Below are positions 3,281-64,000 of a stretch of 64,000 bases of DNA, in pieces; the first letter of the stretch is position 1, and each line of letters begins with the position of its first letter. The stretch is from an uncultured archaeon (lineage in GTDB: Archaea > Aenigmatarchaeota > Aenigmatarchaeia > QMZS01). The position numbers and the translations under genes were made by a program. The DNA is taken from the NCBI GenBank assembly GCA_964547015.1, contig CAZJKT010000003.1, positions 1,154 to 65,153 of the forward strand. The letters are read 5' to 3'. The notes under the pieces are model-generated. The model was not told the origin of the DNA and ran no database searches. It worked only from the letters and a program-made list of their open reading frames with translations.

Positions 3281-3817
3281 ATGAGAGAGAGAAAAATACT
3301 TGTGCTGGACTACCTTCCAAACGGCTACCCCGGAATGAAAAAAATTGAGCCAATTATACAGGGCATCGGCCTTAACCATTTTGCCCTCCTTGAGCTTGTA
3401 TCCGGGGTAAAGGTATCGCCTGGAGATGAGGTTTTGCTTTCCGATGAGGAAACGGTCAAGGGCATAAGGCGAAAGCTTCAGGAAAAAGACCTTACAAACT
3501 TCGCAAAAAGCCACCTTGAAGACAGGCTTGCCGAGATTATAAAAAAAAGGGAACCTGAGTTTGTTAGCTTTTTTAATAGGGCGACAAGGCTTTCAATTCG
3601 GACTCACCAGCTTGAGCTTCTGCCCGGAATAGGAAAAAAGCACATTCAGGTAATCTTAAAAGAGCGAAAAAACCCTTTCACTTCATTTGAGGATATAAAA
3701 AAGCGGGTCGGCATGACTGTTGAGATAGAGAGGCTTATTGCAAAGCGGATTGTGCTTGAGCTTAGGGGGGAGGAGAAAAACAACCTGTTTATTGCGCAAA
3801 AGCCGAAAATACTCTAA
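3281..3817 (+). CDS. DUF655-family protein with helix-hairpin-helix nucleic-acid-binding motif
   Basis: LLPGIGKKHIQVILKERKN...FTSFEDIKKRVG is a typical HhH motif. The gene sits in the conserved position after rpl21e-rpoF. Confidence 0.75.
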   Translation: MRERKILVLDYLPNGYPGMKKIEPIIQGIGLNHFALLELVSGVKVSPGDEVLLSDEETVKGIRRKLQEKDLTNFAKSHLEDRLAEIIKKREPEFVSFFNRATRLSIRTHQLELLPGIGKKHIQVILKERKNPFTSFEDIKKRVGMTVEIERLIAKRIVLELRGEEKNNLFIAQKPKIL

Positions 3818-17671: not shown

Positions 17672-18505
17672 ATGGCTGAAAGAAAAATTAAGGTGAAGGG
17701 TAAAAAAGCTGAGGCTGATAGCGGGGAAAAGCTCCAAAAAGAGCCAAAAAAGGCAATTAAGGCTAAGGAAATCAAAAATCCCGCAAAGGCAAAAAAATCC
17801 CCTAAAGAGCCGTCCAAAAAGAAAAAGATAGATATGCTTTTAGAAGAGATTGAGGAGGAAGAATCAGATAACTTTTCAAAAGAGGATGATTTGGACGAAG
17901 AAGATGAGGATAATGCGGGAGAATGCGAAACCTTTTATGAAAAGCCTGCATGGAAGAACGAAAAAAAAGTATATTTTGGCGAGCTCGTGGAAAGCAAGGT
18001 CTATGTGTGGGGCGCTCAGGAGTCTGAAGAGATTTATGACTTGGGGTGCTTTGGCAAAATCCGCGAAGACAAGAGAAATGAGCTTTCCCTTGAAGAGGCG
18101 CTCCTTCTCCTAAAAAGAAACAAGCTCAAAGTGAAATACCAAGAGGAAGAGTTTGATGAGAAAGGCTTTTTTGGGCATGCCTGCCGTCAGGATGCGGAAT
18201 TTCCCTGGAAATTTGCGGTTTATGAAGACCTTCGGGGCCGCGGGCTTCTCGTGCGAACAGGCTTCAAATTTGGAACGCATTTTAGGGTTTACGCACGCGG
18301 GGTGAAACTTAAAAGAGGGCCAAAGAATGTTAAGGAGCACACAAAGTGGATTGTCCATGCCATTCCCGAAAATTACACCTGCTCTTTTCCCGAGCTTTCC
18401 AGAGCCGTCCGTTTGGCGCATAATATCCGGGCGAAAATGCTCTGGGCTGTTGTTGACGAGGAAGGGGATGTGACTTATTACGAAGTTTTGAGGAAGACCC
18501 CTTAG
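17672..18505 (+). CDS. endA: tRNA-splicing endonuclease (EndA) with a Lys/Glu-rich N-terminal extension
   Basis: The C-terminal catalytic domain GFKFGTHFRVY ... HTKWIVHAI ... RLAHNIRAKMLWAVVD...VTYYE matches the conserved Tyr/His/Lys blocks of archaeal EndA. An N-terminal-type domain lies at residues about 70-150. The first 60 aa or so are a low-complexity K/E-rich tail. Confidence 0.8.
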   Translation: MAERKIKVKGKKAEADSGEKLQKEPKKAIKAKEIKNPAKAKKSPKEPSKKKKIDMLLEEIEEEESDNFSKEDDLDEEDEDNAGECETFYEKPAWKNEKKVYFGELVESKVYVWGAQESEEIYDLGCFGKIREDKRNELSLEEALLLLKRNKLKVKYQEEEFDEKGFFGHACRQDAEFPWKFAVYEDLRGRGLLVRTGFKFGTHFRVYARGVKLKRGPKNVKEHTKWIVHAIPENYTCSFPELSRAVRLAHNIRAKMLWAVVDEEGDVTYYEVLRKTP

Positions 18506-20827: not shown

Positions 20828-21237
20828 TGCAGGAGGGCGGATTTTCGATTTTAGCCAAATTAGCTGTGATATCCCGCGAAGCGGAATGGTTTTTCTTTGG
20901 GGTGTCGGACTTTCTTTTTCTAAAAGAACGTCTGACTTCGAACCGCCGAACCCACTAAGAGACTGGATTGCTCATCTCCAAAAGATTTTCTTTTGGGGGT
21001 GTCGGACCTTTTCTTCTTAAGAAAAGGGCTGACCTTGAGTCCAGCGCCTTTCTCCAGTCTTGAGTTTGGCCCCTATGCAATATCCGCCCGTTCGCGAAGC
21101 GAACGTTGTATGCGAAAATTGTTTTCTTTTGGGGTTATTAGACCTCCATCATTTGCGAAGCAAATGGTGGCGCCGTTCCCTGTGAACGCGCGTTGCATCT
21201 CGCTGATGAAGAGATGACCAGACTTGGCTACTCCTGC
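20828..21237 (-). tRNA. tRNA-Leu (anticodon CAA) with three introns, on the minus strand. Exons 21237-21215, 21050-21034, 20968-20937 (plus the T at 20841) and 20840-20828; introns about 21214-21051 (D-loop), 21033-20969 (37/38) and 20936-20842 (T-loop).
   Basis: Manual fold of the reverse complement. Acceptor GCAGGAG/CTCCTGC with discriminator A; D-arm GCC-AAGTCTGGTCA[intron]AA-GGC identical in form to the Leu-UAG gene; anticodon stem CTGGA/TCCAG with loop CTCAAGA; variable arm T-CTC-TTAGT-GGG-TTC; T-stem GGCGG/CCGCC with loop TTCGAAT. Spliced length is about 86 nt. Confidence 0.65.
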
Positions 21238-21387
21238 ATAACCTAAATCGCCATAATTCTTAAAAATAGGATTCTGCATTTGCCGGATTCTAAAAGCCCT
21301 AATATAATTCTTAAGGCGCATTTAGAGCAACCCGACAAGAAAATAAATATTTTTATCCCCTAAAACAAGCTTATCATTTAGATAGAT

Positions 21388-23048: not shown

Positions 23049-24425
23049 CTATTCGAAGAATCTCCTTACCATAGGGTTCATATCCTCCATATATTGCTGG
23101 CCAATCCTCTCATAGAAGTTATAGAGTATCATTACCGTAAGAAGAATGCCTGTTCCTGTGCCTACGGCCCCGGTAAGGTCTGCTACAGCCGCCAAAAGCC
23201 CGACAGCAAGCCCGCCCATGATGGCCAGAGGATAGATATATTTGCTTAGCACCTTTACAAGAATTCTCTTATCTTTCCTAAAGCCCGGAATCTGCATCCC
23301 CACAGAAGATATCTGCTCTGCTACCGCCGCGGGGCCCATATTCGTAGTTTCCACCCAGAAATATGAGAATACTACACAAAGAAGCATTAAAAATACCGTG
23401 TAGGTTGTTGCCCTATAATACTCTGAAGTTACAACCTCCTCTCCGGAAAGAACCCTTGGCAAAAGATTATGAGGGGCTGAAAGATAGTAGGCCGCGCCGC
23501 TAAGTGGTTGTCCGTTCTCATCAAATGTCCCAAATACAGATATCCCGCGGGAATCCATGATTGAGCCCATCATTGTCACATTAATTAAAAGCGCGGCCGC
23601 AAGGATTACCGGCATGTTTGAAGTGTAGAAGAAATTCAAAGGCCACCTCCTGCCAAATCCCCTGACCTGAGAGAATGCCAGCGGGATTTCTACTTTAATT
23701 GACTGGGCAAAAATGCATATCGCAAACACAGCCAAAGTCGCTATAATTATTGTTAGGGAAAGTATCACAAGGCTTGCATTAGCGGAGAAAAACCCCTGAA
23801 ACACGCTTAGTACTGCCCCTGCGCACTGTCCGCCTCCGGTTATGCTGCAAAGCCCCCCGTCAGCGGACAAGGGTGAAAAAAGCCTTACAAAAATGGTTTT
23901 GGCAACGCCTGCGGCAATAAAGAGTGAAACGCCCGGGCCAAGCCCCCATTTTGTGCTGATTTCATCCAAAAACAAAATCATAAGGCCGCCAAGAGCAATC
24001 TGAAGGCCTACTAATGGGATTAAAGCTGAAGTCTCAGCCCTAACCGCCCCAAAAAGGACAAATGCAAAGCCCTCAACAAAACACAGGATTATTGCAAGGG
24101 TTTTTTGCGTCCCCTGAAATTTTATTCTTCCTTCCTTGGTGTTTAGGTTCCAGGATAGGATTTTAGCCCCTACAAGCACCTGAAGGAGAATGGAGGAGGT
24201 AACAATCGGGCCGATTCCTAAGGTCCCAAGTGTTCCGAATTCAGAGCCTAAAAGAACAGAAATATTGCGGAAATAATCAAAGCTTTGGGCGGCTATGCCG
24301 TAAATAGGGGTTTCGCCCATTGTGTAGAATAAAAGAAGGATTGCCACAGTCCATTTTAGCCTTTGCTTAAAGTCAAGCCTTGATTTGGGCTTAACAACGC
24401 CGGGCAGTTTTGAAAATAGGTTCAT
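23049..24425 (-). CDS. secY: Preprotein translocase subunit SecY
   Basis: 458 aa with ten TM segments. The overall pattern matches SecY and it lies adjacent to L15 as in the universal ribosomal/secY cluster. Confidence 0.9.
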   Translation of the reverse strand: MNLFSKLPGVVKPKSRLDFKQRLKWTVAILLLFYTMGETPIYGIAAQSFDYFRNISVLLGSEFGTLGTLGIGPIVTSSILLQVLVGAKILSWNLNTKEGRIKFQGTQKTLAIILCFVEGFAFVLFGAVRAETSALIPLVGLQIALGGLMILFLDEISTKWGLGPGVSLFIAAGVAKTIFVRLFSPLSADGGLCSITGGGQCAGAVLSVFQGFFSANASLVILSLTIIIATLAVFAICIFAQSIKVEIPLAFSQVRGFGRRWPLNFFYTSNMPVILAAALLINVTMMGSIMDSRGISVFGTFDENGQPLSGAAYYLSAPHNLLPRVLSGEEVVTSEYYRATTYTVFLMLLCVVFSYFWVETTNMGPAAVAEQISSVGMQIPGFRKDKRILVKVLSKYIYPLAIMGGLAVGLLAAVADLTGAVGTGTGILLTVMILYNFYERIGQQYMEDMNPMVRRFFE

Positions 24426-45682: not shown

Positions 45683-47564
45683 AAATTCCTTTTCGGCCAC
45701 CCTGAGAGGCAAAAAATTCCATAAAGGCCAGTGGTATATTGTGGCGGCAGTGCTTTTCTCCTACTCTCTTCTCACTTTTTTTGACATATTTGACAGTTAT
45801 ACTCAGATAGATTATACCTCTATAATAAAAAGCGACGAGGATATGCTCTACCTTGATGCAATGAGAGATATACAATATATTACTTCAAAGGCGACAGATA
45901 TCTCAAATATGGAGGGTGATGTTGCAGAATATCTTGAGATGGTTAACGGAAACCTGCTTGGCAAAGGGATGCTTGTGGAATATTCTTTTTCCTCTTCAGG
46001 GGGCATAATGAGCCTCTCTGAGCTTAAGTTTGCCGGAAAAAACCTTAGAGTGGAATTGCCTACAGAATCGGAATATTGTATTCCTGAAGACAATAATCAA
46101 TTTTGTTACAGACACGGGAAAAATTGCGGCACATTCACTTCCACTGACAATTGCGGGGAGCCAAGGACTGCCAATTGCGGCACCTGTACTTCGCCAAATA
46201 CCTGCGGAGGCGGAGGCGTTCCTAATATCTGCGGATGCTCACCTTCCACATGCGGCTCTCTTGGCAAAAACTGCGATACCTGGCCTGACGGCTGCGGAGG
46301 GACACTGAACTGCGGAAGCTGTTCTTTTGGATATAGCTGTATTGAGGGCATCTGTGAATATACCTGCGTCCCTGAAAACGATACCGAATTCTGTTCGAGA
46401 TACGGGAAAAATTGCGGCACATTCACTTCCACTGACAATTGCGGGGAGCCAAGGACTGCCAATTGCGGCACCTGTACTTCGCCAAATACCTGCGGAGGCG
46501 GAGGCGTTCCTAATATCTGCGGATGCTCACCTTCCACATGCGGCTCTCTTGGCAAAAACTGCGATACCTGGCCTGACGGCTGCGGAGGGACACTGAACTG
46601 CGGAAGCTGTTCTGCAGGATACAATTGCATAAATGGAGTATGCACCGTGGGCTGGTGTTATAGAATGCCTATTACACTTACAAATGGGGGAGGGCCACTT
46701 ACAAGCTATGCCATAAAAATAGATGTCGCATATGTTCCCGGAAAAATGAAGGCCGACTTCTCTGACATAAGGTTTACTTTGGCTGATGGGACCACTCAGC
46801 TTTCGCACTGGAGAGAATCCTATGTTGCAAGCTCTTCTGCGGTTTTCTGGGTTAAAGTAAACTCAATACCGTCGGGAAGCTCAACGATATATGTGCACTA
46901 TGGAAATAGCGCGGCAAGTTCGGCAAGCAATGGAGATAACACCTTTTTGTTTTTTGATGATTTTGCGGGAACTTCTCTAAATACAGCTAAATGGATTCCA
47001 CAAACATCCGGGGCAGGCACAATAACCGTAAATAATGGAATTACGCTTAATAACCCTAACTTAAATTCAGATACCGCCCTTATCTCCCTTAGGAATTCGG
47101 GGGCACATTGTGTTGTAAGGGGCGCAAACATAATAGAATTTTATGGCCGACTTATCCCTAACCCAAATAGTGGGTTTGGTTTTGCCCTTTTTGTTGCGGA
47201 TTATTCAGCACCTGTAAGATATATATCAATATCCCAACTTAGCGTCAGCAATACTATGAGAATAACAAACCAGGCGGGTCCTGGCTCTTACAGCTCAAGC
47301 ACACTAGGAAGTTTTACCTCTGATATGGCCAGATGGAAATTTTATGGTGACGGCTCTTCCACCCATGTTTATATTAACGACAACCACCAGTCTTTTTCCT
47401 CTGTCTATCCTACAGGTATGGTTTGCCAGACCGAAATAAGTGTGGGGCCGAGAACAAGCGGAGGGAGAAATCCGAGACAGGTTTATTTATCCTGGTTTGT
47501 AATCAGAAAATTTTCAAATCCAGAGCCCACCGCCACTATCGGAGCTGAACAGAATGTATGCTAA
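45648..47564 (+). CDS. Surface/secreted protein with an N-terminal TM anchor, two identical Cys-rich 96-aa repeats, and a C-terminal DUF2341 plus LamG/concanavalin-like domain
   Basis: Repeats of NCGTFTSTDNCGEPRTANCGTCTSPNTCGGGGVPNICGCSPSTCGSLGKNCDTWPDGCGGTLNCGSC. The DUF2341-like start WCYRMPITLTNGGG...YAIKIDV. A hydrophobic helix at residues about 28-46. Confidence 0.6.
   Translation: MGSPTSRFIGFKNSFSATLRGKKFHKGQWYIVAAVLFSYSLLTFFDIFDSYTQIDYTSIIKSDEDMLYLDAMRDIQYITSKATDISNMEGDVAEYLEMVNGNLLGKGMLVEYSFSSSGGIMSLSELKFAGKNLRVELPTESEYCIPEDNNQFCYRHGKNCGTFTSTDNCGEPRTANCGTCTSPNTCGGGGVPNICGCSPSTCGSLGKNCDTWPDGCGGTLNCGSCSFGYSCIEGICEYTCVPENDTEFCSRYGKNCGTFTSTDNCGEPRTANCGTCTSPNTCGGGGVPNICGCSPSTCGSLGKNCDTWPDGCGGTLNCGSCSAGYNCINGVCTVGWCYRMPITLTNGGGPLTSYAIKIDVAYVPGKMKADFSDIRFTLADGTTQLSHWRESYVASSSAVFWVKVNSIPSGSSTIYVHYGNSAASSASNGDNTFLFFDDFAGTSLNTAKWIPQTSGAGTITVNNGITLNNPNLNSDTALISLRNSGAHCVVRGANIIEFYGRLIPNPNSGFGFALFVADYSAPVRYISISQLSVSNTMRITNQAGPGSYSSSTLGSFTSDMARWKFYGDGSSTHVYINDNHQSFSSVYPTGMVCQTEISVGPRTSGGRNPRQVYLSWFVIRKFSNPEPTATIGAEQNVC
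46114..46613 (+). repeat. Perfect tandem direct repeat, period 288 bp; the two copies are identical over about 212 bp
   Basis: Block 46114-46325 is repeated exactly at 46402-46613, inside the surface-protein gene. Confidence 0.85.
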
Positions 47565-53070: not shown

Positions 53071-53610
53071 CTATTTGTCGTCGCTTTTGCCCATCACAAA
53101 ATACCACATCGCCGCAACCACAAGAACGATTAGGGCTAGAGCCATTGTGTCCGAGCCAAACCTTGAGTAAAAGCTTACGCCTCCGCCAAGCCAGCCTCCG
53201 ATAAGGAACCATGCGAATACCACCAAAAGGATGAGAAATATCCAAGCCCGAGGTCCCTTCTTGTTCCTAACATCCCCAAGCGCGCTGTTGTTTGCAAGGG
53301 CCATTACAAGCAAAATTCCCAACATCACTATCAGGAACATTGCCATAGTCCCGGCTGACTGAGTGAAGAAAGCCCCCATTGTTGCCCCAAACGGAGTGAA
53401 TGCCGCAACGAAGAAGCCGAGGGTTAAAGCAACTATTCCGTTAATTTTGTCGCCATCTCCATCTCCAAAGGGCTTTACAATGTTGAGCAGCCCGTAAATC
53501 ACCGCAAAGGACAAAATCCACGGAAAGATTACTTCATAGAGCATTCCGCAAAGGTTCCCTGAAATCCCTAAGTAACTGCAAATCGGTGCATTTCCTATGC
53601 CATACGCCAT
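53071..53610 (-). CDS. Polytopic membrane protein, copy A of a tandem duplicate pair
   Basis: Shares almost identical N-terminal and core sequence with 53723-54316 (MAYGIGNAPICSYLGISGNLCGMLYEVIFPWILSFAVIYGLL ... AMFLIVMLGILLVMALANNSALGDVRNKKGPRAWIFLILLVVFAWFLIGGWLGGGVSFYSRFGSDTMALALIVLVVAAMWYFVMGK). Confidence 0.5.
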   Translation of the reverse strand: MAYGIGNAPICSYLGISGNLCGMLYEVIFPWILSFAVIYGLLNIVKPFGDGDGDKINGIVALTLGFFVAAFTPFGATMGAFFTQSAGTMAMFLIVMLGILLVMALANNSALGDVRNKKGPRAWIFLILLVVFAWFLIGGWLGGGVSFYSRFGSDTMALALIVLVVAAMWYFVMGKSDDK

Positions 53611-53722
53611 AATAAGATACCCTTTATAATATATTAGCTTTTAGCTGTTCATTGTGGGGCTAATCAAAGCACTAATCGTGCATTACATAAAAGCTAAAAT
53701 TAAAATAGATGGGGGGTTTATA

Positions 53723-54316
53723 TTATCCGGGCACAGCTTCTTTTGGTTTCTGCGGTGAAGCGCCCTCGTTTTTGCCCATCACAAAATACCACATCGCCGC
53801 AACCACAAGAACGATTAGGGCTAAAGCCATTGTGTCCGAGCCAAACCTTGAGTAAAAGCTTACGCCTCCGCCAAGCCAGCCTCCGATAAGGAACCATGCG
53901 AATACCACCAAAAGGATGAGAAATATCCAAGCCCGAGGTCCCTTCTTGTTCCTAACATCCCCAAGCGCGCTGTTGTTTGCAAGGGCCATTACAAGCAAAA
54001 TTCCCAACATCACTATCAGGAACATTGCCATAGTCCCGGCTGACTGAGTGAAGAAAGCCCCCATTGTCGCCCCAAACGGAGTGAATGCCGCAACGAAGAA
54101 ACCAAGGGTTAAAGCAACTATCCCCGAAATCTTTTTGCCTTTTTTGTCCTTATCGTCTTTATCGAAAGGCTTGACTAACAAAAGAAGGCCGTAAATCACC
54201 GCAAAGGACAAAATCCACGGAAAGATTACTTCATAAAGCATTCCGCAAAGGTTCCCTGAAATCCCTAAGTAACTGCAAATCGGTGCATTTCCTATGCCAT
54301 ACGCCATAATTAACAT
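53723..54316 (-). CDS. Polytopic membrane protein, copy B of the tandem duplicate pair
   Basis: As above. It differs in a charged loop (KPFDKDDKDKKGKKISGI versus KPFGDGDGDKINGI) and in the C-terminal tail. Confidence 0.5.
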   Translation of the reverse strand: MLIMAYGIGNAPICSYLGISGNLCGMLYEVIFPWILSFAVIYGLLLLVKPFDKDDKDKKGKKISGIVALTLGFFVAAFTPFGATMGAFFTQSAGTMAMFLIVMLGILLVMALANNSALGDVRNKKGPRAWIFLILLVVFAWFLIGGWLGGGVSFYSRFGSDTMALALIVLVVAAMWYFVMGKNEGASPQKPKEAVPG

Positions 54317-55112: not shown

Positions 55113-56570
55113 ATGGCAGAAAAACTGATTAAGGATAACCTCAAAAAAACCGCTGATTATGAATACATAATAGATAAGTCACTGCGGGAAGGGGCAAGGG
55201 TAAATTCTAAAGTTATAGCAACTGAGAGGATAATCGAGGCGGCAGAAGAGGAGGCTTTGGCGCAGCTCACAAATGTTGCCTGCCTTCCGGGGGTTGTTGA
55301 GCCGGTCTGCGGAATGCCTGATATTCACTGGGGATACGGGCTTCCAATGGGCGCTGTCGGGGCGTTTGACTCAAAAGAGGGAATAATCTCCTGCGGCTGC
55401 ACAGGGTTTGATATCAACTGCGGGATCCGAATGATTAAGACCAATCTGACTTATGATGAGGTCAAGCCAAAATTAAGATTGCTTATTGACACTTTATTCA
55501 AAAATGTTCCTTCAGGGGTCGGGGCGAAAGGAAAGCTTCGGTTGAGCAGGGACCAGTTGGAGGAGGTTCTTGTAAAGGGGGCCAAATGGGCGGTCAAGGA
55601 AGGATATGCACCTGAAAAAGACTTAATGCACATGGAGGAGTACGGATGCATGGTAGGCGGGGACACTGAAATGGTTTCGAGCATGGCGATGAAAAGGGGA
55701 CTACCTCAGCTTGGGACTCTTGGCGCCGGAAACCATTTTTTGGAAGTGCAAAAGGTCGGAGAGATTTTTGACAAAAAAATTGCCGAAACTTTCGGCGTGA
55801 CTGACCCGAACCAGATTATAATTATGCTTCACTGCGGAAGTCGGGGCTTGGGGCATCAGGTGGCAACGGATTATTTGAAGATTCATGACAAGGCCGCAAA
55901 AAAGTACGGGATAAAACTTCCTGATCCTCAGCTTGTTTGCGCGCCGGTGACCTCAGACGAAGGGCAGGCTTATTATTCTGCCATGAAGTGCGCTGTCAAT
56001 TACGCGTTCACAAACAGGACCGTGATGACTTCGTGGGTTCGGGAATCGTTTGAGGGCGTTTTCCAAAAAAAGCAGGAAGAAATGGAAATGGACCTGATTT
56101 ATGATGTATGCCACAATATCTGCAAGCTCGAGGAGCATGTTGTTAATGGGGAGAAAAAGCAGCTGTATGTGCACAGGAAAGGGTCGACTCGAAGCCTTCC
56201 TGCCGGCCACGAGCTGATTCCTGAGACTTACCGAAAAGTCGGACAGCCGGTTTTGATTGCGGGCTCGATGGGAACGGCGAGTTATATTTTGGTCGGAGGC
56301 GAGAACGCGGCAAGCACATTTTATTCAAGCTGCCACGGAGCAGGCCGTGTTATGAGCCGAAACGAGGCGATAAGGCGGTACCGGGGCAGGCAGGTGCAGG
56401 ATGAGCTTTTGAAGGAGGGAATTGTGGCGAAGTCTACAAGTCCAATCGTTTTGGCTGAGGAGTCGCCAAACGCCTACAAGGACGTTGATGAGGTCATACG
56501 CGCGGTTGATATGGCGGGAATCTCAAGGAAGGTCGTTCGGGTCGTTCCTGTTGGGGTTGTTAAGGGATGA
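55113..56570 (+). CDS. rtcB: RNA-splicing ligase RtcB (tRNA exon ligase)
   Basis: CGMPDIHWGYGLPMGAV, GCTGFDINCGIRM, GAGNHFLEVQ, HCGSRGLGHQV and SSCHGAGR are the conserved metal-binding and catalytic blocks of RtcB. Confidence 0.9.
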   Translation: MAEKLIKDNLKKTADYEYIIDKSLREGARVNSKVIATERIIEAAEEEALAQLTNVACLPGVVEPVCGMPDIHWGYGLPMGAVGAFDSKEGIISCGCTGFDINCGIRMIKTNLTYDEVKPKLRLLIDTLFKNVPSGVGAKGKLRLSRDQLEEVLVKGAKWAVKEGYAPEKDLMHMEEYGCMVGGDTEMVSSMAMKRGLPQLGTLGAGNHFLEVQKVGEIFDKKIAETFGVTDPNQIIIMLHCGSRGLGHQVATDYLKIHDKAAKKYGIKLPDPQLVCAPVTSDEGQAYYSAMKCAVNYAFTNRTVMTSWVRESFEGVFQKKQEEMEMDLIYDVCHNICKLEEHVVNGEKKQLYVHRKGSTRSLPAGHELIPETYRKVGQPVLIAGSMGTASYILVGGENAASTFYSSCHGAGRVMSRNEAIRRYRGRQVQDELLKEGIVAKSTSPIVLAEESPNAYKDVDEVIRAVDMAGISRKVVRVVPVGVVKG

Positions 56571-56596: not shown

Positions 56597-59500
56597 TTAG
56601 CTTACTCCAACTTTCTCAAACAAACGAGATAGGTAATCCCTATCGCTGGTCAAATAGATTCCCCGACTCTCCGGGTCATTTAGAATATCTTGACTTAATT
56701 GCTCCTTGGGTGTTTGAGAGACAATAAAGGAGTATAGCTCAAAAGCCTCATCTGGATGCTTCTCCCTTAGATTACGCTCAATTGCCTTGACATATTTGTG
56801 GAAATTAATTTTTTCCCAATCCACATGGTTAAGACCCTTGGGATCAATAAAAATAATCTTTTGTTTCGTGTCTTCCAGTATCCACAAAATGAAGTCCGGG
56901 TAGAAGAGTTCAGTCTCAAGATAATAACCATAGCCGATTCCCTCATGATTTCTGAGAAGAACCACCTTTCGACCACCAATATCCTTTCTTTCCAGAAATA
57001 TCCTCAAGGCATCAATAAACGATTTTTCGCCGTCATTTAGTCCAGCAGGATGAAAGGTGTAGCTTGCAGTCCCCCCCTCCTGTGCCACAAGAAGAGGATA
57101 ATAAGCGTGCTTGTCAAATCTGACACAAAGCTTATTCAGAGCATTTTTAGAGCCAGGCGTATCCTCCAAAACGGTCTGAATATCGTCAAAATCTATTATT
57201 CTGGACTTGGTTTTGAGAACTGCCTCCAAAACACCTCTTATTCGTTCATCTACGCTTCCTTTAATCGCGCCTTTCTCGTCGGTAAATATCTTCATCTGAC
57301 AGGTAGTTGGGACTTTGGACTCAGAAAGCTTTGCAAGAGACATTCTCTTCTCATAGTATCGCCGCAAGGCAAGAGAGTAATTTTTGTTCATTGCTTTCGT
57401 TATGACCTCAAGGTATGCTCTCTCCAATAGGGTCCTGGCAACAGAAATATCTTTTCTAGCATTAAGATATGCCATATCCCCATAGACAGATACCATTGCG
57501 TCGTTCGAAACCAAGTAGTTTTTTAGTTCTTCGGCGGAGCAAAGAGAAAGATTTTGATAGTTCTTGACACGTTTGTGTCGCCTCAACTCGGTGAGAAGTC
57601 TTTCCCAGTCAACTAAATCCAAATATTCTTCAGTAAAGATTGGGCAGGATTCGGGGCGGGTTTTTGGAATGTCCTTAGAATCAGAAGTCTTGCTATTCAT
57701 CGCAGTTATGTGGGGATTAAGATCCAGCCTTATTTCTGTCGCAAATGGGAGCATAGATACCAATTCCGTTCGTCGGAAACTGCCCTCCACATCCCTCTCA
57801 CGCTCAATACAAAGTAGGTCACTAAACTTAACCGAATCAGGCATTCTCAGGTGGATATTTATCTCCTTTTCAACGTAGAATTCAATGTCTTCTGCAAGCT
57901 CCTCTCTAAATGCCTCCATATAGCTGGCATCTATCCCAAAAACATTAAGGGTTTCAAGAAGGGGGAGGTATTTTTTCAGCTCCCCACTAATCGGGCGGAG
58001 GTCTTTTGAACTGCGCTTCATGCTGTTCTTGTAGCCGTGGATGCGAACGCCTCGCCCAAACAGCTGTATGGCCGAAACTCCCCGGGTTTTCGCAAAATTC
58101 ATCAAAAGCATAGAAGAAATTCGGTAATTGTCCCAGCCCTCTATGAATTTCTTTGCACCGATAAGGACATTCACGGGTTGCTCTTTGGGTGTACTCAGTG
58201 CCTTAAATTGTGACTTTGAAATAGAATTTGTGCGTTGCCGTACAGTATTCAGTTCTTTGTTTGCAGTCTCCTTCGCTTTCTTTAGGATTTTCTTGTCATT
58301 TCCCTTTCCTACATAAATCAGCCCAAAATAGGTAGCATCCGAGTCCCCATATTTAAGCCCGATTTCGCCGTCAGAATCATGAATGTCTTCCATCACAAGA
58401 AGCGAGTCATTGTAACCGGAGTAAAAGACCGTTTTGAACAAATCATCAAAAAGCGCTTTGGTGTCGTTCTTAAAGGTATTTTGAAGAAGTTCTCTCAAAT
58501 AGGGGAAATGATCCTGGAAGAGCGGGTTTCCCCGCTCATCCTTAAGAGGCAAATTTCCAGAAACCAAAAAATTCTCAATCGCCTTGAGGTAATGCTCCTT
58601 TTTCAGCTTCAGGCGGTTAAGGAATACCACAAATTTGAAGATGTCTGAGCTTATTTTTTCGTCCAGATTGTCCTTATCACTCTCCACTACTCTCGACCCC
58701 ACAAGAATCCAGAGCGGGTTTTCGATAAGGTGGGTAGTTTCTGCTTCCCTGCGATTTTCGAGGAAAAGCTTTTTTTGCTGATAAAATGAGAGTAGATTGC
58801 CGAGCATTATGTTTTTCTCGTACTCGTCTTGCTTGCCCACATTTGAGATGAAATAATCCTTGCCATAGCCCTCCTTGTGGTAATATTTGTAGGAATAGTC
58901 AAAAAGGATGGTTTTCTTGTAATCTTTGGCTTCCTTTTTTTTCCCCACATCCCTGAATGTAGCGCTGTACTCCATCGTAAAGCCTTCCTTTGCAACCTTA
59001 GAGCGCATTTTAAGCCAGGCGTTTCCGCTTGCGCCCCTATGTCCCTCATCCACCAAAATCAGGTTTTTATCGCCAAAGGCGCGATAACTGATCGTTTTGT
59101 CCTTTGTAGTTTCGGACAGCTTGTTAATGTCAATAATTTTTATCGCCTTTCTGACAAAATTGTCCTTTTTTGCCATTATTGCCCTAAAACCCGACTTTTC
59201 AAATTCCTTTAGGTGCTGGCGTGACAAATCTTCGTTAGGGGTTATTAGGATAATGTTGTTTATCTCCTGGCGGTATTTCTCGGCGTAGTGCAGGTATTGG
59301 TGGATGTTTATATGCATCACAAGGGTTTTTCCTGAACCCGTTGCCATCCAGTAGCACAGTTTTTCTAGGTCGTCCTGGAGGTAATCATCAATATCTGTGT
59401 ATTTTTCCGGGATGTTGTTTTTTCCCTGATTCAGAAATTCGATAAACTCCCCAAGCTCCTGCTCTTCCTTCTTTTGGAAGTACAAATCGAGGTAAATTTC

Positions 59501-59833
59501 GGTTATAAGGAGAGCGGCATACTGAAACACCTTAAACACGATTTCCCTCTTGCCGTTGATTTTGTCGATATGGTCTTTGATATTGAGGTCATATTCCCTC
59601 AGTTTTGCTTCATCAAGGATATTATAGGGGTAAGGCACATTTATCGCCCCAAAATAGTCCAAAATCGCCTTCATGAAGTTGCTCTGGTCGGACTCGAATT
59701 TGTACTCAAAATCCGCCTTTTCCTTTAGAAAGTCGATAAATTTGCAGGTATCGTCAAAACCCAGGCACCTTGGCAGAATCTTTGGAAGGACCAAAGACGC
59801 GCTCAAATTCTCATTAATCTCCTTTTTTACCAT
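56597..59833 (-). CDS. Res-like restriction enzyme subunit: SF2 helicase/ATPase with a putative C-terminal PD-(D/E)xK nuclease (Type III Res-like), 1078 aa
   Basis: Helicase motif I WMATGSGKTLVMH, motif II ILVDEGHRGASG and motif VI QLFGRGVRIHG. The C-terminal FYPDFILWI...KIIFIDPKG is consistent with a PD...(D/E)xK nuclease. The start overlaps the upstream methyltransferase stop by 7 nt. Confidence 0.7.
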   Translation of the reverse strand: MVKKEINENLSASLVLPKILPRCLGFDDTCKFIDFLKEKADFEYKFESDQSNFMKAILDYFGAINVPYPYNILDEAKLREYDLNIKDHIDKINGKREIVFKVFQYAALLITEIYLDLYFQKKEEQELGEFIEFLNQGKNNIPEKYTDIDDYLQDDLEKLCYWMATGSGKTLVMHINIHQYLHYAEKYRQEINNIILITPNEDLSRQHLKEFEKSGFRAIMAKKDNFVRKAIKIIDINKLSETTKDKTISYRAFGDKNLILVDEGHRGASGNAWLKMRSKVAKEGFTMEYSATFRDVGKKKEAKDYKKTILFDYSYKYYHKEGYGKDYFISNVGKQDEYEKNIMLGNLLSFYQQKKLFLENRREAETTHLIENPLWILVGSRVVESDKDNLDEKISSDIFKFVVFLNRLKLKKEHYLKAIENFLVSGNLPLKDERGNPLFQDHFPYLRELLQNTFKNDTKALFDDLFKTVFYSGYNDSLLVMEDIHDSDGEIGLKYGDSDATYFGLIYVGKGNDKKILKKAKETANKELNTVRQRTNSISKSQFKALSTPKEQPVNVLIGAKKFIEGWDNYRISSMLLMNFAKTRGVSAIQLFGRGVRIHGYKNSMKRSSKDLRPISGELKKYLPLLETLNVFGIDASYMEAFREELAEDIEFYVEKEINIHLRMPDSVKFSDLLCIERERDVEGSFRRTELVSMLPFATEIRLDLNPHITAMNSKTSDSKDIPKTRPESCPIFTEEYLDLVDWERLLTELRRHKRVKNYQNLSLCSAEELKNYLVSNDAMVSVYGDMAYLNARKDISVARTLLERAYLEVITKAMNKNYSLALRRYYEKRMSLAKLSESKVPTTCQMKIFTDEKGAIKGSVDERIRGVLEAVLKTKSRIIDFDDIQTVLEDTPGSKNALNKLCVRFDKHAYYPLLVAQEGGTASYTFHPAGLNDGEKSFIDALRIFLERKDIGGRKVVLLRNHEGIGYGYYLETELFYPDFILWILEDTKQKIIFIDPKGLNHVDWEKINFHKYVKAIERNLREKHPDEAFELYSFIVSQTPKEQLSQDILNDPESRGIYLTSDRDYLSRLFEKVGVS

Positions 59834-62796
59834 AAGCGCTTCCTCATTTCATCATAGATGTTACGGTAATTTTGTGAAACGAGACTGTCGCAGCTTATGA
59901 AAACTTCCTTGTATTTATCTTCCAGGAGCTTGTCCATGAATTTGCCGGCGGCTTTCTTTTCCTCGTCGTCCCTGCACGGAGGTCTCCAGATCGCTATGGC
60001 TTTTTCGCCTTTGTACCTGCCCTTTACGACAAAATATTCAGCGCCGTTGTCCTCCAGTTTCTCCATTTTGTCCACATCAAGCCCCATCAGGTAAATAAAT
60101 GTCTCGATTAAGTCCACGGTTTTTTCTGTTGTGGCACCGTCAATTTTCAGGTCAGAACCGCCCGACTCGTTCAAAACCTTGATTTTTAAATCAAGGTGCT
60201 TGTCCTCAGTGTCCACTCCAAGGAAATTCCCGGATTTGCCCTTGTCTATGCCATTTTGGAGCATGTATTTCAAAACATCGCCCTTTTGGTCGTAGAATCG
60301 GTTCAAATCCATCTGTTTGAAGACCACATTTTCAAGGGCGTCCTCGTACTGTTCCATTTCGTGGTACTTGAAAAAGCCGCCAATTGAATCCATATCCTGC
60401 GGCTTGCCGTCCTTCCAGTTTAGGGAGTAGAGCACTTTCTTTATCCTTGGATTGAGGACGGTATGAAAATAATCGCCCATTTCGACAAGGATGAATTTTC
60501 TCTTTCCTTTGTCCTCCTTGTTTAGAGAGATTACTGCATGTCCGGTTGTTCCTGAACCTGCGAAGAAATCCAGATTCACAGAGGCATCATTCATTGTCGC
60601 ACCAATCAATTGCTCATACAACGAAACGGGATGGCAATATGGAAAAAATAAATCCATACCATCTAAAAAATATTTACCACTTTTTGCATCTTTAATCACA
60701 GACGAAAGTTGTCGCTTTGAGTCAGAATCAAGATATACTTTTTTTTGTGGCTGAGTAGAATGATCTTCACCCCACAGGATTTCATCGTCATCTATCATCT
60801 TTTTCAGAGTTTCGGGTGTGCGAGACCAGCCATTGGTTGGGATAGGACAAGGTTTTTTTGTTTTGGGATGTATCAAAGGTATGTGGAATTTTGGGTCGGA
60901 CCTATATTCGGGGGCACCCATAGCAACTCCACGAAAAACTCTGCCATCATCTTCAAGAAGTCTATATGCTTTCTCACCTCCCGTGAGATCTGTTTGAGAA
61001 ATTATCCACCTTGAAAATTCTCTCCGTGAATCATCATTAACTCCACCCGAAAGCTCGATAAACCGCTTTGCATGCTCAATAATACTCAATACGGCACTAT
61101 TACGCATATAGACAGGTCCACTAAATTTGGAACGCCAAAGAATGTACTCGTGTTGCGTAGCGATTCCTTGTCTACCTAACATGGGATTCTTTTTATCCCA
61201 AATTATTGTTCCTCTACTAGGTAAACCAAATCTATCCAACATTACAAATAAAACCTCATATTCATTTTCATCGATATGACATTGAAAGACACCCTCCAAT
61301 GATAAAACCTTGGCAGACGATTCTACACACTGAGACATAAGAGATAGCCAACTTGAATGCCTGTAGTTGTTTTTATAAAGAAAACCACTAGTTTCAGTAT
61401 TATATGGAGGATCAATGTGTATGCAAGTTACCCTTTCTCTGTACTTCTCCTGCAAGAGATTGAGCGCCTGCCAGTTCTCGGAATGAATCAAAATCCCGTC
61501 AAGTTTCTCGTCAAGCCCCTCGATTTGCCCCAAAATCCTCCATTTGAAGCTATTTGAGAAGTTTTTAGTGTCAAGGGGCAGTTTTCTCCACTTGCCGTTT
61601 ATTTTAAGGTCGTCTTTGCCCTTGACCTCAATCCCAAAAAGGGCTTTCCACTCGGAAATCTGGGTCTTATTTGACAAGATTTCCGGAACAATTTCCTCCA
61701 AGAAATTTTCCCCGCAAAACTCTGAAATCTTGTCCAGAGTGATTACATAGTGGCTCTCCAAAATGAATTTCTTCTTCTCCCAGACTTTTTTCTTGAGATT
61801 CTCCAAAGCGTCGAGCTTCTCGATTATATTCTTCGAGACATCCTTGAAGACTTTTGCGACGATTTTGCGGTTCTCGCTAAAATTGCCCTTATCGTCAATA
61901 TAATCGTCCACATGCACGACTTCCTGATTTAAGTAAAAATTGAGTTGCCCTCTCAAAAACCCGCCCAGATTCTTGTGGATAAAATAATCCTCCTTGTACT
62001 TTCTCTGGAATTTGTTCAAAATGCCCTCCAGGCCCTCAATTTCGCCAACGGTCTCCAAAATCTTTGAAATCGCCTGCAAATTGAGGGCTTTTTGAATTTC
62101 TGCCTGATTCTTGCCAAGCTCCTTAAGCTCGTCTGTGACAAAAACCCGCTCAAAATTCACCTTAAGTTCGCCGTCATCCTCAATCGGGTTCTCCTCAGAA
62201 AGCATAAAACAGGTCATTCCTCCCTTCTGGTTTCCCTTTTTCTCCTCGACCTTGACCACCCGCAAAAGCACCGTGCGCCCGTTTGCCTCGAAACTGAAGC
62301 GGGAGTATCGCTCAGAAGTCTTAATATAATACATATCCTTTGTCACCCAGTGCAAATCTACCTCAGAGCCGTCATAAGGGATGAGATAAGTGCCCTCTTT
62401 GAAATAAAACTGCGAGATAAAATCGCCGTCCTGATAATACCTTGAAAAGAAATTTACAAGGTGCTTGTAAATCTCATCAGTAATATCGCCAATTGTGCCA
62501 ATTTCTTTCTTCTTTGCCAGCAAATCCTGGTATTTTTTAGAGTCCTCCAAAGAAACGCCGGCTTCGGTAAGGGTTTTTCTAAGCTCAGAAAGCTCTTTTT
62601 CAATGTCCTCGCCAAACTCCTTCCTGATATTGAGAATCCCGGTTTTCACAAGCACGGAAAGCTCCTTTTCGACAAATGCGTCGATTTCCTCATTTTTCTG
62701 CTTCATCAGGCGATAGACCCCAAAATCAAGGTCTTTATCGTCAGACCGAAACATTTCTCTTAACTGCTTTTTCAAACGGTTAAATGATTCATCCAT
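59827..62796 (-). CDS. Beta-class N6-adenine DNA methyltransferase (Type III Mod-like) with an N-terminal domain of about 450 aa of unknown function
   Basis: Motif IV CIHIDPPYNTE precedes motif I DFFAGSGTTGHAV (beta-class permutation). The ORF track starts at 62892. I prefer the internal Met (MDESFNRLKK, about 62796), which abuts the stop of the upstream gene. Confidence 0.7.
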   Translation of the reverse strand: MDESFNRLKKQLREMFRSDDKDLDFGVYRLMKQKNEEIDAFVEKELSVLVKTGILNIRKEFGEDIEKELSELRKTLTEAGVSLEDSKKYQDLLAKKKEIGTIGDITDEIYKHLVNFFSRYYQDGDFISQFYFKEGTYLIPYDGSEVDLHWVTKDMYYIKTSERYSRFSFEANGRTVLLRVVKVEEKKGNQKGGMTCFMLSEENPIEDDGELKVNFERVFVTDELKELGKNQAEIQKALNLQAISKILETVGEIEGLEGILNKFQRKYKEDYFIHKNLGGFLRGQLNFYLNQEVVHVDDYIDDKGNFSENRKIVAKVFKDVSKNIIEKLDALENLKKKVWEKKKFILESHYVITLDKISEFCGENFLEEIVPEILSNKTQISEWKALFGIEVKGKDDLKINGKWRKLPLDTKNFSNSFKWRILGQIEGLDEKLDGILIHSENWQALNLLQEKYRERVTCIHIDPPYNTETSGFLYKNNYRHSSWLSLMSQCVESSAKVLSLEGVFQCHIDENEYEVLFVMLDRFGLPSRGTIIWDKKNPMLGRQGIATQHEYILWRSKFSGPVYMRNSAVLSIIEHAKRFIELSGGVNDDSRREFSRWIISQTDLTGGEKAYRLLEDDGRVFRGVAMGAPEYRSDPKFHIPLIHPKTKKPCPIPTNGWSRTPETLKKMIDDDEILWGEDHSTQPQKKVYLDSDSKRQLSSVIKDAKSGKYFLDGMDLFFPYCHPVSLYEQLIGATMNDASVNLDFFAGSGTTGHAVISLNKEDKGKRKFILVEMGDYFHTVLNPRIKKVLYSLNWKDGKPQDMDSIGGFFKYHEMEQYEDALENVVFKQMDLNRFYDQKGDVLKYMLQNGIDKGKSGNFLGVDTEDKHLDLKIKVLNESGGSDLKIDGATTEKTVDLIETFIYLMGLDVDKMEKLEDNGAEYFVVKGRYKGEKAIAIWRPPCRDDEEKKAAGKFMDKLLEDKYKEVFISCDSLVSQNYRNIYDEMRKRLW

Positions 62797-62797
62797 T

Positions 62798-64000
62798 CTA
62801 AATTGCCCTCTTGAAGTGCTTGCACATAAATCTATATGGGCAATTTTTACAAAAAAGCTTTCCTTTTCCGGTTCCGCAATATTTTTCGCCAATTACCGCC
62901 TCAGAAAACTCATTCAGGACCCTCTTTGCTTCAGAACCGTCTTCAACAGGAAATTCTGCGTCCGAAAGCCGGAATTTTTCCTCCTCAATTGGATAGGCCA
63001 CAGCCCGATCCACCTTTTGCCCGTCCTTTCGCAGGGCGTTGGCATAGAACTTAAGCTGAAGGTCCACATGGGTCTCAGATATGGCTTTGAGCTTTCTTGC
63101 CTTGAAATCCATCAAAACTACCTCGCCGGCCTTATTCTCAAAGAGAAAGTCAGTCCGACCCCGAATCCTTATTCCTTCCATCATCACACTTACTGGGGAC
63201 TCAATCGAAATCACGTGCCCAAGCTCCTTTCCCATGAAATCATTATACCTATCCAGGCTTCTTCGGATTTTGTGGCGAAAAATCTCATTATTCTTGCCAA
63301 GATCCACCCAGGATTCATCCAGAATTGCCTCCAGTCTCTGACCGTCAACACAAGAACCTCTACCCATATCCACATTTAGCTTGGCTAAAGCGTTATGGTA
63401 TATTCTGCCAACTTTTTGCTGGAAAATCTCCTCCGCTTTGAAACCATACACATAGTTTATCTTGAAACGCTCTGGGCAGTCAACAAAAGTCGAAATAGCC
63501 GAAAAATCGACCAGCTTTATCCCCGGCTTTTCTTCGGGTTTCGGGCTGATTTCCACATTCGCCAATCTATCCTCGCTAAAGTCTGAAATGTGCCCGTCAA
63601 AATCAGAGATAAATTCTGAGGGGTTTGAAGTTTTCCCGCTATCATAAGCATCAAAATGGGTTAAAAAGAGTGCATCCCTGGCTCTGGTAATCGCAACATA
63701 AAAAAGGTTCTCCTCCTCTTTTAGGGGTGAATATTTCTCATAGAGATAAAACTTCTCAGGTATATTTATCAATTCAGAAGGGAGTTTCGATTTCGGTATA
63801 CGCCTCTTAGTAAGAGAGGGAACAATTACTACCGGAAATTCAAGCCCTTTTGCCTGATGAATATTCATCAAGTACAGTGAATGATTGTCCAGAACCTCAA
63901 AGCCGTCCGCCTTTTTATTAATATTGAGGTTTTCTGGAAAAGCACTCAAAAGCCTCAAAAACATCAAAAAATCGCCATTGCCATACACGAAGACAAAATC
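62798..64000 (-). CDS. C-terminal part of an SF1 UvrD/PcrA-like helicase fused to a Cas4/AddB-type Fe-S PD-(D/E)xK nuclease domain. The N-terminus lies beyond the window end.
   Basis: UvrD C-terminal motifs IHQAKGLEFPVVIVPSL and VAITRARDAL. The nuclease motif GRTDFLFENKAGEVVLMDFK. A four-Cys cluster, DCPERF ... CGTGKGKLFCKNCPYRFMC, typical of the RecB-family Fe-S nucleases. The frame stays open to position 64000. Confidence 0.7.
   Translation of the reverse strand, partial: DFVFVYGNGDFLMFLRLLSAFPENLNINKKADGFEVLDNHSLYLMNIHQAKGLEFPVVIVPSLTKRRIPKSKLPSELINIPEKFYLYEKYSPLKEEENLFYVAITRARDALFLTHFDAYDSGKTSNPSEFISDFDGHISDFSEDRLANVEISPKPEEKPGIKLVDFSAISTFVDCPERFKINYVYGFKAEEIFQQKVGRIYHNALAKLNVDMGRGSCVDGQRLEAILDESWVDLGKNNEIFRHKIRRSLDRYNDFMGKELGHVISIESPVSVMMEGIRIRGRTDFLFENKAGEVVLMDFKARKLKAISETHVDLQLKFYANALRKDGQKVDRAVAYPIEEEKFRLSDAEFPVEDGSEAKRVLNEFSEAVIGEKYCGTGKGKLFCKNCPYRFMCKHFKRAI

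Follow-up and report, generated by a model that had tools for sequence, protein, structure and literature searches.

In the Thermoproteales, tRNA genes with multiple introns and a large-scale 'intron transposition' have been described (Sugahara 2008; Fujishima 2010; both after the summary in PMC4090602). The tRNA-Leu(CAA) gene reported here lies on the minus strand of a 64-kb window, by which we mean the whole stretch of DNA that was analysed. Together with its neighbours, it shares with the Thermoproteales, as these are presented in PMC4090602, the presence of introns of closely related sequence in non-orthologous tRNAs at differing positions, a proposed spread at the DNA level, and relaxed BHB motifs of the kind cut by an EndA of broad specificity. 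It differs in belonging to another superphylum (DPANN, Aenigmatarchaeota) and apparently to an organism that is no hyperthermophile, as judged from its A/U-containing stems. The introns also differ, being much longer (65-164 nt), modular and multi-hairpin, with one module found in both orientations, and the tRNA-Leu(UAG) gene of the same window has four of them.

In the Asgard archaea Atabeyarchaeia and Freyarchaeia, introns occur in 92-95% of the tRNA genes; they are often non-canonical and multiple, and some are missed by tRNAscan-SE (PMC11291895). This is a different lineage, and the available part of that report gives counts and positions but describes no conserved modular family and no composite introns. 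Within the DPANN, disrupted tRNA genes are more common where EndA carries inserted loops (PMC5829648; PMC3239211), and gaps in tRNA sets have been taken to mean that disrupted genes escaped detection (PMC5829648). The tRNA-Leu(CAA) gene is one such undetected disrupted gene.

Elements within introns are known from other systems. In Euglena plastid twintrons (PMC4090602), a discrete element resides within an intron, as it does here, and is equipped there with splice signals of its own. Twintrons are group II/III ribozyme introns which require ordered splicing, whereas excision of the inner element would be optional here and is a candidate only. The archaeal tRNA-Trp intron harbors a box C/D sRNA (PMC4090602) and is similar in carrying an element inside an intron, but the C/D boxes are missing here. 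Because no exact C box (RUGAUGA) and no CUGA occur in any of the three introns of tRNA-Leu(CAA), an intron-encoded box C/D guide RNA of the tRNA-Trp type was ruled out. A eukaryotic nuclear tRNA gene with introns in three arms resembles our gene in intron distribution and BHB-dependent recognition, but its introns are short and do not share an intron family.

The tRNA-Leu(CAA) gene and its splice junctions

An earlier note, made from the letters of the DNA, had proposed a minus-strand tRNA-Leu(CAA) gene with three introns. This proposal holds. The four exon strings quoted there are present once each on the minus strand and in order (21237 to 20828), the introns measure 164, 65 and 95 nt as stated, and ARAGORN calls tRNA-Leu(caa) from the joined exons, as the class II tRNA on which the note had staked its proposal. 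Exon 1 (21237-21216) provides the 5' strands of the acceptor stem and D-stem and the D-loop up to UGGUC, and ends in a unique BHB register. Exon 2 (21051-21034) carries the D-loop end, the 3' strand of the D-stem, the 5' strand of the anticodon stem and the loop through G37, with the anticodon CAA. Exon 3 (20968-20937) extends from A38 over the 3' strand of the anticodon stem, the long variable arm and the 5' strand of the T-stem to A59 in the T-loop. Exon 4 (20841-20828) comprises U60, the 3' strands of the T-stem and acceptor stem, and A73; CCA is not encoded. The predicted joins, UGGUC-AAAGG, CUCAAG-AUCCAG and UUCGAA-UCCGCC, result in an 86-nt tRNA in which U8, A14, G18G19, U33, the T-loop UUCGAAU and A73 are intact. 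It has a 7-bp acceptor stem (7/7 pairs intact), a 3-bp class II D-stem, the anticodon loop CUCAAGA and a long variable arm.

In the raw 64-kb window, no tRNA is called by ARAGORN, with or without the canonical-intron mode, and none by Rfam at gathering thresholds; ARAGORN detects tRNA-Leu(CAA) only after intron removal. The precursor folds far better than its shuffles (z = -5.9). An A/T-rich, TATA-like box (TATTTTTAA; 21268-21260, minus strand) can be read in the sequence 23-31 nt upstream of G1. Boxes of this kind are also found ahead of the Leu(UAG) and Arg(UCG) genes, and we consider the box a putative promoter of the tRNA-Leu(CAA) gene.

For the splice junctions, every candidate pair of splice sites was scored for its central, outer and inner helix. 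The central helix is formed by a four-nucleotide stretch of exon whose end lies 2 nt before the 5' cut and a four-nucleotide stretch of intron whose end lies 2 nt before the 3' cut, and this 4-bp helix must be flanked by an outer and an inner helix. Each of the three junction pairs has a unique register with a 4/4 central helix. Intron 2 (21033-20969, minus strand; 65 nt) is at the canonical position 37/38 and has a strict hBHBh' motif with central helix CUCA/UGAG (4, 6, 2 for central, outer and inner helix). Intron 3 (20936-20842, minus strand; 95 nt) is in the T-loop at 59/60 and has a relaxed HBh motif, UUCG/CGAA (4, 5, 0), the outer helix of 5 being the T-stem itself. Its site and its 3' tail are common to the T-loop introns of Leu(UAG) and Arg(UCG). 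Intron 1 (21215-21052, minus strand; 164 nt), a composite family intron, is located in the D-loop at about 20a/20b. Its BHB (4, 1, 3) is weak: the central helix CUGG/CUGG consists of two Watson-Crick and two G-U pairs, the outer helix of a single pair, and the inner helix is UCU/AGA.

The D-loop cut had been placed immediately after UGGUCA. The site is confirmed but not the exact base, as the BHB geometry puts the cut after UGGUC, with the 3' exon starting AAAGGCG. The A at this boundary is ambiguous, so that neither the mature sequence nor the length of 164 nt is changed. The near-identity of the D-arm to that of Leu(UAG) is also confirmed (they differ by one base), and both genes are indeed interrupted at the identical D-loop point, with identical BHB geometry. 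Two other ways of parsing this region were rejected. A pair of adjacent introns separated by a micro-exon is ruled out by the single register that has a 4/4 central helix and flanking pairs and that matches the Leu(UAG) paralogue; a join through AGAAA instead of UCAAA falls outside that register.

A loose BHB scan of the window returned 74 matches, compared to about 51 in shuffles, and is unspecific by itself. For this reason, four further genes of like build were parsed alongside tRNA-Leu(CAA): Arg(UCG) (9828-10090), Leu(UAG) (16622-17057), and Arg(UCU) and Thr(UGU) from the metagenome contig L055. The joined products of all five genes are called by ARAGORN. A 4/4 central helix in exact register is present at 13/13 junction pairs, compared to 2.8% off-register, a background taken from pairs around those 13 junctions (binomial P about 7e-21). 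This geometry suggests that the three introns of tRNA-Leu(CAA) are excised as BHB introns. As far as can be judged from the DNA, the locus is a real, functional-looking gene with three introns of the EndA type.

Public ORF calls of 66-82 aa without a Pfam match occur at 21073-21321 of the window (minus strand), at 1966-2214 of L057, and at 3514-3720 and 3835-4035 of L001.

With gene callers placing hypothetical ORFs without a Pfam match at this locus and tRNA finders detecting nothing in the raw DNA, one might take it for a decayed tRNA pseudogene or for a small protein-coding gene (an 82-aa ORF extends over exon 1 and intron 1). Such ORFs, which in the public calls cover exon 1, intron 1 and adjoining parts of the locus, lack any family match, however. 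Also speaking against this reading are the conserved tRNA positions and the seven acceptor pairs, all intact after joining, the BHB geometry kept at all junctions, and the neighbouring Leu(UAG) and Arg(UCG) genes, which share the build. We regard a pseudogene or protein-coding gene as highly improbable, and the hypothetical ORFs are probably artefacts of an undetected tRNA gene.

The intron family and its members

The tRNA-Leu(UAG) gene (16622-17057, plus strand) has four BHB-bounded introns, located in the D-loop (113 nt), at 37/38 (47 nt), in the variable loop (96 nt) and at 59/60 (95 nt); the joined exons yield an 86-nt class II tRNA. To our knowledge, three introns were the maximum reported per archaeal tRNA gene in the older literature. 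The tRNA-Arg(UCG) gene (9828-10090, plus strand) carries family introns at 37/38 (93 nt, strict BHB) and at 59/60 (95 nt), and in raw DNA it is missed by both ARAGORN and Rfam.

The introns of the family are built on a common plan. The 5' part starts with the tag [U/G]NAAG[A/C]C, which is followed by a long pyrimidine/purine hairpin and by UCCNNAAC..CAAAGAAAA. The 3' part consists of a hairpin with a GCUUCGC apex, the sequence AUAUC, and a junction-specific 3' tail which pairs with the 5' exon. Compensatory changes are seen in the first hairpin in an alignment of 14 sequences. The 5' module is present in introns 2 and 3 of Leu(CAA), introns 1, 3 and 4 of Leu(UAG), introns 1 and 2 of Arg(UCG), and introns from L055 and L056; the sites occupied are the D-loop, 37/38, the variable loop and 59/60. 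A second module was recognised in the L055 introns. It consists of a hairpin (CCUUCAAUUUGC-loop-GCAAAUUGGAGG), the sequence GGCGCC, and a bulged helix (CGCCGUUC...GAACGAGCG). GGCGCC is present in every copy of this module; its 12 sites in the window, compared to about 7 expected, are unremarkable by themselves. The heptamer GCTTCGC occurs 11 times in the window, 7 of these inside tRNA introns.

A strict pattern of the family motif has 3 matches in the window where 0 are expected. A covariance model of the 5' module scores 13 copies at 39-64 bits (55.9 and 61.1 bits for introns 2 and 3 of Leu(CAA)); these copies are its training set and thus match by construction. Elsewhere in the window the model detected none, and about 130 kb of other Aenigmatarchaeota/DPANN loci, among which few tRNA genes of relatives are sampled, gave no convincing match. 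In a metagenome collection, the strict pattern was found at only 2 further loci, both of which have more multi-intron tRNA genes. Viral contigs scanned for both modules contained neither, Rfam at a permissive threshold gave no meaningful match to the family introns, and we found no description of such an intron family in Aenigmatarchaeota in the literature consulted.

The sequence similarity of introns across non-orthologous tRNAs and positions is the feature expected of a transposed or paralogous intron family, and it is found here. An IS200/IS605-like insertion beside a fixed target is disfavoured, as the flanks, judged by eye, differ between sites and BHB pairing accounts for the terminal TCGAA similarity of the T-loop introns.

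Two family copies were encountered outside recognisable tRNA genes, just past the SecY stop codon (23049-23051), each with a BHB-like bracket. The first (23051-22989, minus strand; 63 nt; c4, o1, i4) starts exactly at the stop codon, after TTCGAA. The second (22980-22903, minus strand) has 78 nt (c4, o5, i5), and the two are separated by 8 nt (GGCTGGCG). They could be EndA substrates in the 3' end of an mRNA, orphan intron genes, or remains of a tRNA gene. An mRNA intron needed for the SecY reading frame was ruled out, because the ORF ends naturally at ...MNPMVRRFFE*.

The composite D-loop intron

Intron 1 of tRNA-Leu(CAA) had been suspected to be composite, and this is borne out: nt 38-76 show homology to another family intron when that intron is read as its reverse complement, and the rest is built on the family plan. 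The plan is followed from nt 74 on (UCUAAUAACCCCAAAAGAAAA, CAAUUUUCGCAUA as in intron 3 of Leu(UAG), the GCUUCGC hairpin, AUAUU), with the family motif TCTAATAACCCCAAAAGAAAA in forward orientation at 21142-21122 (minus strand); the 5' 73 nt depart from it. The description of the intron as about twice the family length was overstated. Other family introns have 65-137 nt, mostly 93-113 nt, which corresponds to a ratio of about 1.5-1.7.

The homologous block (21178-21140, minus strand), identified by local alignment and BLAST, corresponds, in reverse complement, to the hairpin-GGCGCC-helix module in intron 2 of the L055 tRNA-Arg(UCU) gene (L055_ArgUCU_i2). The local score is 53 (z = 18; reached by 0/500 shuffles), compared to 20 for the same module in forward orientation, and BLAST aligns 27/29 positions on the opposite strand. 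As read from the sequence, the bulged nucleotide of the GUUC/GAAC helix is on the opposite strand when compared to the forward module, and the helix is positioned 5' of the hairpin rather than 3'. Both switches are as expected for an inversion. Palindromic hairpins match in either orientation, so that part of the homology says nothing about direction; the direction is read from the GGCGCC/GUUC flank, from the side on which the helix is bulged, and from the loop.

The two GCTTCGC hairpins noted earlier in intron 1 do exist and are predicted in the MFE fold of the precursor. Hairpin 1 (CATTTGC-TTC-GCAAATG; 21166-21150, minus strand) is the apex of the inverted module, as follows from the inverted homology; in forward copies, the apex is GCGAAGC in L055_ArgUCU_i2 and GCAGAGC in the first intron of tRNA-Thr(UGU) (L055_ThrUGU_i1). 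Hairpin 2 (CGTTCGC-TTC-GCGAACG; 21105-21089, minus strand) is the regular second hairpin of the family. By this sequence comparison, the two hairpins are not tandem copies of one unit. A profile-HMM deletion scan of intron 1 did not show that deletion of the extra block restores the family hairpin, since only the CCCCAAAAGAAAA motif scores.

On L055 (6754-7044, plus strand), the T-loop intron of tRNA-Thr(UGU) has 137 nt and carries the second module in forward orientation after hairpin 2. Over-long composite introns thus recur in the family. Reverse splicing at the RNA level is unlikely to invert a module, and we therefore infer that the inversion in intron 1 arose by a DNA-level rearrangement among palindromic intron modules. 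No orthologous copy of the tRNA-Leu(CAA) gene or of its intron 1 was found among the loci of relatives that were compared, so that intron 1 has no covariation support.

The earlier note had also asked whether the 164-nt intron can be split into two BHB-bounded units, which would imply stepwise splicing. The split stands as a matter of form: a 45-nt inner unit (21197-21153, minus strand; intron nt 19-63) is enclosed by a BHB-like bracket, and the outer register is present. The bracket consists of a 9-bp helix (UCUUCAUCA/UGAUGGAGG), a 3-nt bulge (AAA), a 4-5-bp helix GCGA/UCGC, a 2-3-nt bulge, and a 4-bp helix GCAA/UUGC with a 1-nt slip. Its strength (17 bp) is reached by 0/300 dinucleotide shuffles, family introns of normal length have no comparable bracket, and the fold with the inner BHB is the MFE of the isolated 164-nt intron. 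In the modelled fold, the unit is thus bounded by its own complete splice motif, as in a twintron. The implication of stepwise splicing does not follow, because the outer BHB forms independently of inner removal, the inner fold is isoenergetic with a rival fold, and the forward modules are unbracketed. Nor is there homology to free-standing introns, as might be expected for a twintron-like arrangement: the only homologues are internal modules, in opposite orientation and without a BHB bracket, and the 47-nt intron 2 of Leu(UAG) has no significant similarity to the unit.

We lean towards intron 1 being a single composite intron. The extra block would then be a structural expansion that arose when palindromic modules were inverted or recombined at the DNA level, and the palindromes would have produced the BHB-like inner motif incidentally. 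This is supported by the inverted homology of the block, by alternative insert limits (nt 11-49, inserted into the 5' arm of a hairpin extended to 14 bp) which fit equally well, and by the over-long second intron of L055 tRNA-Thr(UGU) (L055_ThrUGU_i2, 137 nt), where the sole BHB-like motif around the forward module is weak and competes with hairpin 2. Against it speaks that the inner motif is stronger than that of any shuffle and shares the loop geometry of genuine junctions. In the rival reading, the 45-nt unit would be an independent BHB intron, inserted in the 7-nt loop of the first hairpin of a host intron. It would be excised separately by EndA, with stepwise or alternative splicing and with circles of 45 and 119 nt. 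Its cut would fall between nucleotides 6 and 7 of the 7-nt loop, which is the geometry of the 37/38 and 59/60 introns. After its removal, a 9-bp hairpin closed by a 7-nt loop would precede the family motif in an intron of 119 nt, near the 113 nt of the paralogous D-loop intron of Leu(UAG); the inner BHB is also the predicted fold of the segment when the cloverleaf and the outer BHBs are enforced. Under that constraint, however, it has -130.6 kcal/mol compared to -130.3 kcal/mol for the fold with local hairpins, and the unconstrained MFE of the precursor prefers the local hairpins. The inner helix requires the slip, the homologous block extends to nt 76 and thus past the 3' boundary of the unit at nt 63, and maturation can do without a separate excision. 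With no free-standing homologue found and no bracket around the forward module in L055 introns, we consider a nested intron rather unlikely. If the 45-nt unit is excised at all, this would be an optional event in tRNA-Leu(CAA) maturation.

Host lineage, splicing enzymes and proposed processing

The genes near tRNA-Leu(CAA) are archaeal (Sec61-type SecY; ribosomal proteins L4, L13 and S9). In reference genomes and a large protein collection, the closest relatives of S9 are from Aenigmatarchaeota (DPANN), with 65-77% identity; the synteny from S9 to tRNA-Leu is absent from relatives at this level of identity. These S9 relatives led us to reject an Asgard origin, which PMC11291895 had brought to mind. 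The contig recurs in several public metagenome assemblies. A contig of the same species from another study is 100% identical and offers no strain variation.

Both archaeal tRNA-splicing enzymes are encoded in the window. The gene for the tRNA-splicing endonuclease EndA (17672-18505, plus strand; 277 aa; Pfam tRNA_int_endo and tRNA_int_endo_N) is located directly downstream of another split tRNA gene and 3 kb from tRNA-Leu(CAA). The protein aligns to the catalytic units of EndAs with solved structures. A single alpha-like catalytic unit spans residues about 100-272, after an N-terminal region of ~100 residues without match, and a Lys-rich insert of six residues (KLKRGP) directly precedes the catalytic His. 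In this combination of length, a single catalytic unit, N-terminal extension and Lys-rich insert, the protein differs from the DPANN EndA variants of PMC5829648 and PMC3239211. Its NCBIfam match is to models of the alpha'2 type and is limited to the C-terminal unit of these models; the alpha'2 type is reported to be missing in DPANN (PMC5829648). The L1 and L2 loops which broaden the substrate range of EndA sit near the catalytic His (PMC5829648), and the KLKRGP insert may likewise act as a specificity loop. The tRNA-splicing ligase RtcB is encoded at 55113-56570 (plus strand; Pfam RtcB, E = 3.5e-169).

Adjoining large genes at 56597-62892 (minus strand) code for a ResIII/SNF2-type helicase (1078 aa) and a protein with an N6/N4 DNA methylase domain (1021 aa); this pair beside RtcB is possibly a restriction-modification or defence locus. 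Large direct repeats are found at 53081-54310 (plus strand; 300 nt with 99% identity and 685-nt spacing, plus 169 nt with 88%), and these are unrelated to the tRNA introns. Another repeat pair (260 nt, 94%) lies within a DUF2341 ORF at 46083-46630.

We are confident in the following overall reading, which draws on sequence comparison: the locus encodes a functional tRNA-Leu(CAA) with three introns that would be spliced by EndA and RtcB and that belong to a modular family, and intron 1 carries an inverted module. A precursor of roughly 410 nt would be transcribed from the gene's own A/T-rich promoter. EndA would recognise the BHB or relaxed helix-bulge-helix motifs in the D-loop, at 37/38 and at 59/60, cutting in the 3-nt bulges. 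RtcB would then ligate the exons to the 86-nt class II tRNA and would probably also circularise the excised introns. The introns appear to represent a lineage-restricted family, long, structured and modular, which may have spread to different sites in different tRNA genes. The 164-nt intron would be the Leu-specific D-loop intron, its position being common with Leu(UAG), in which the usual first hairpin has probably been replaced or expanded by the inverted second module (hairpin, GGCGCC and bulged GUUC/GAAC helix).

A more far-reaching idea, which we put forward as speculation and consider doubtful, is that the BHB introns of this lineage are built from palindromic modules that are mobile at the DNA level in either orientation and land preferentially between nucleotides 6 and 7 of 7-nt hairpin loops, including the loops of other introns, where they would create true nested introns, and also outside tRNA genes. 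If true, this would allow the gain of protein-spliced introns in archaea to be viewed directly for a first time. The question of how these introns spread is one on which both the candidate nested BHB and the family copies with a BHB bracket past SecY bear.

Archaeal tRNA genes with several introns, and families of paralogous introns, were already known; what is new is the lineage in which they occur, how long and modular the introns are, and the inverted module. As standard tRNA finders miss tRNA-Leu(CAA) and its neighbours, genomes of this lineage will seem to lack essential tRNAs. The inverted module is rare sequence-level evidence for a DNA-level reshaping, and perhaps gain, of archaeal tRNA introns.
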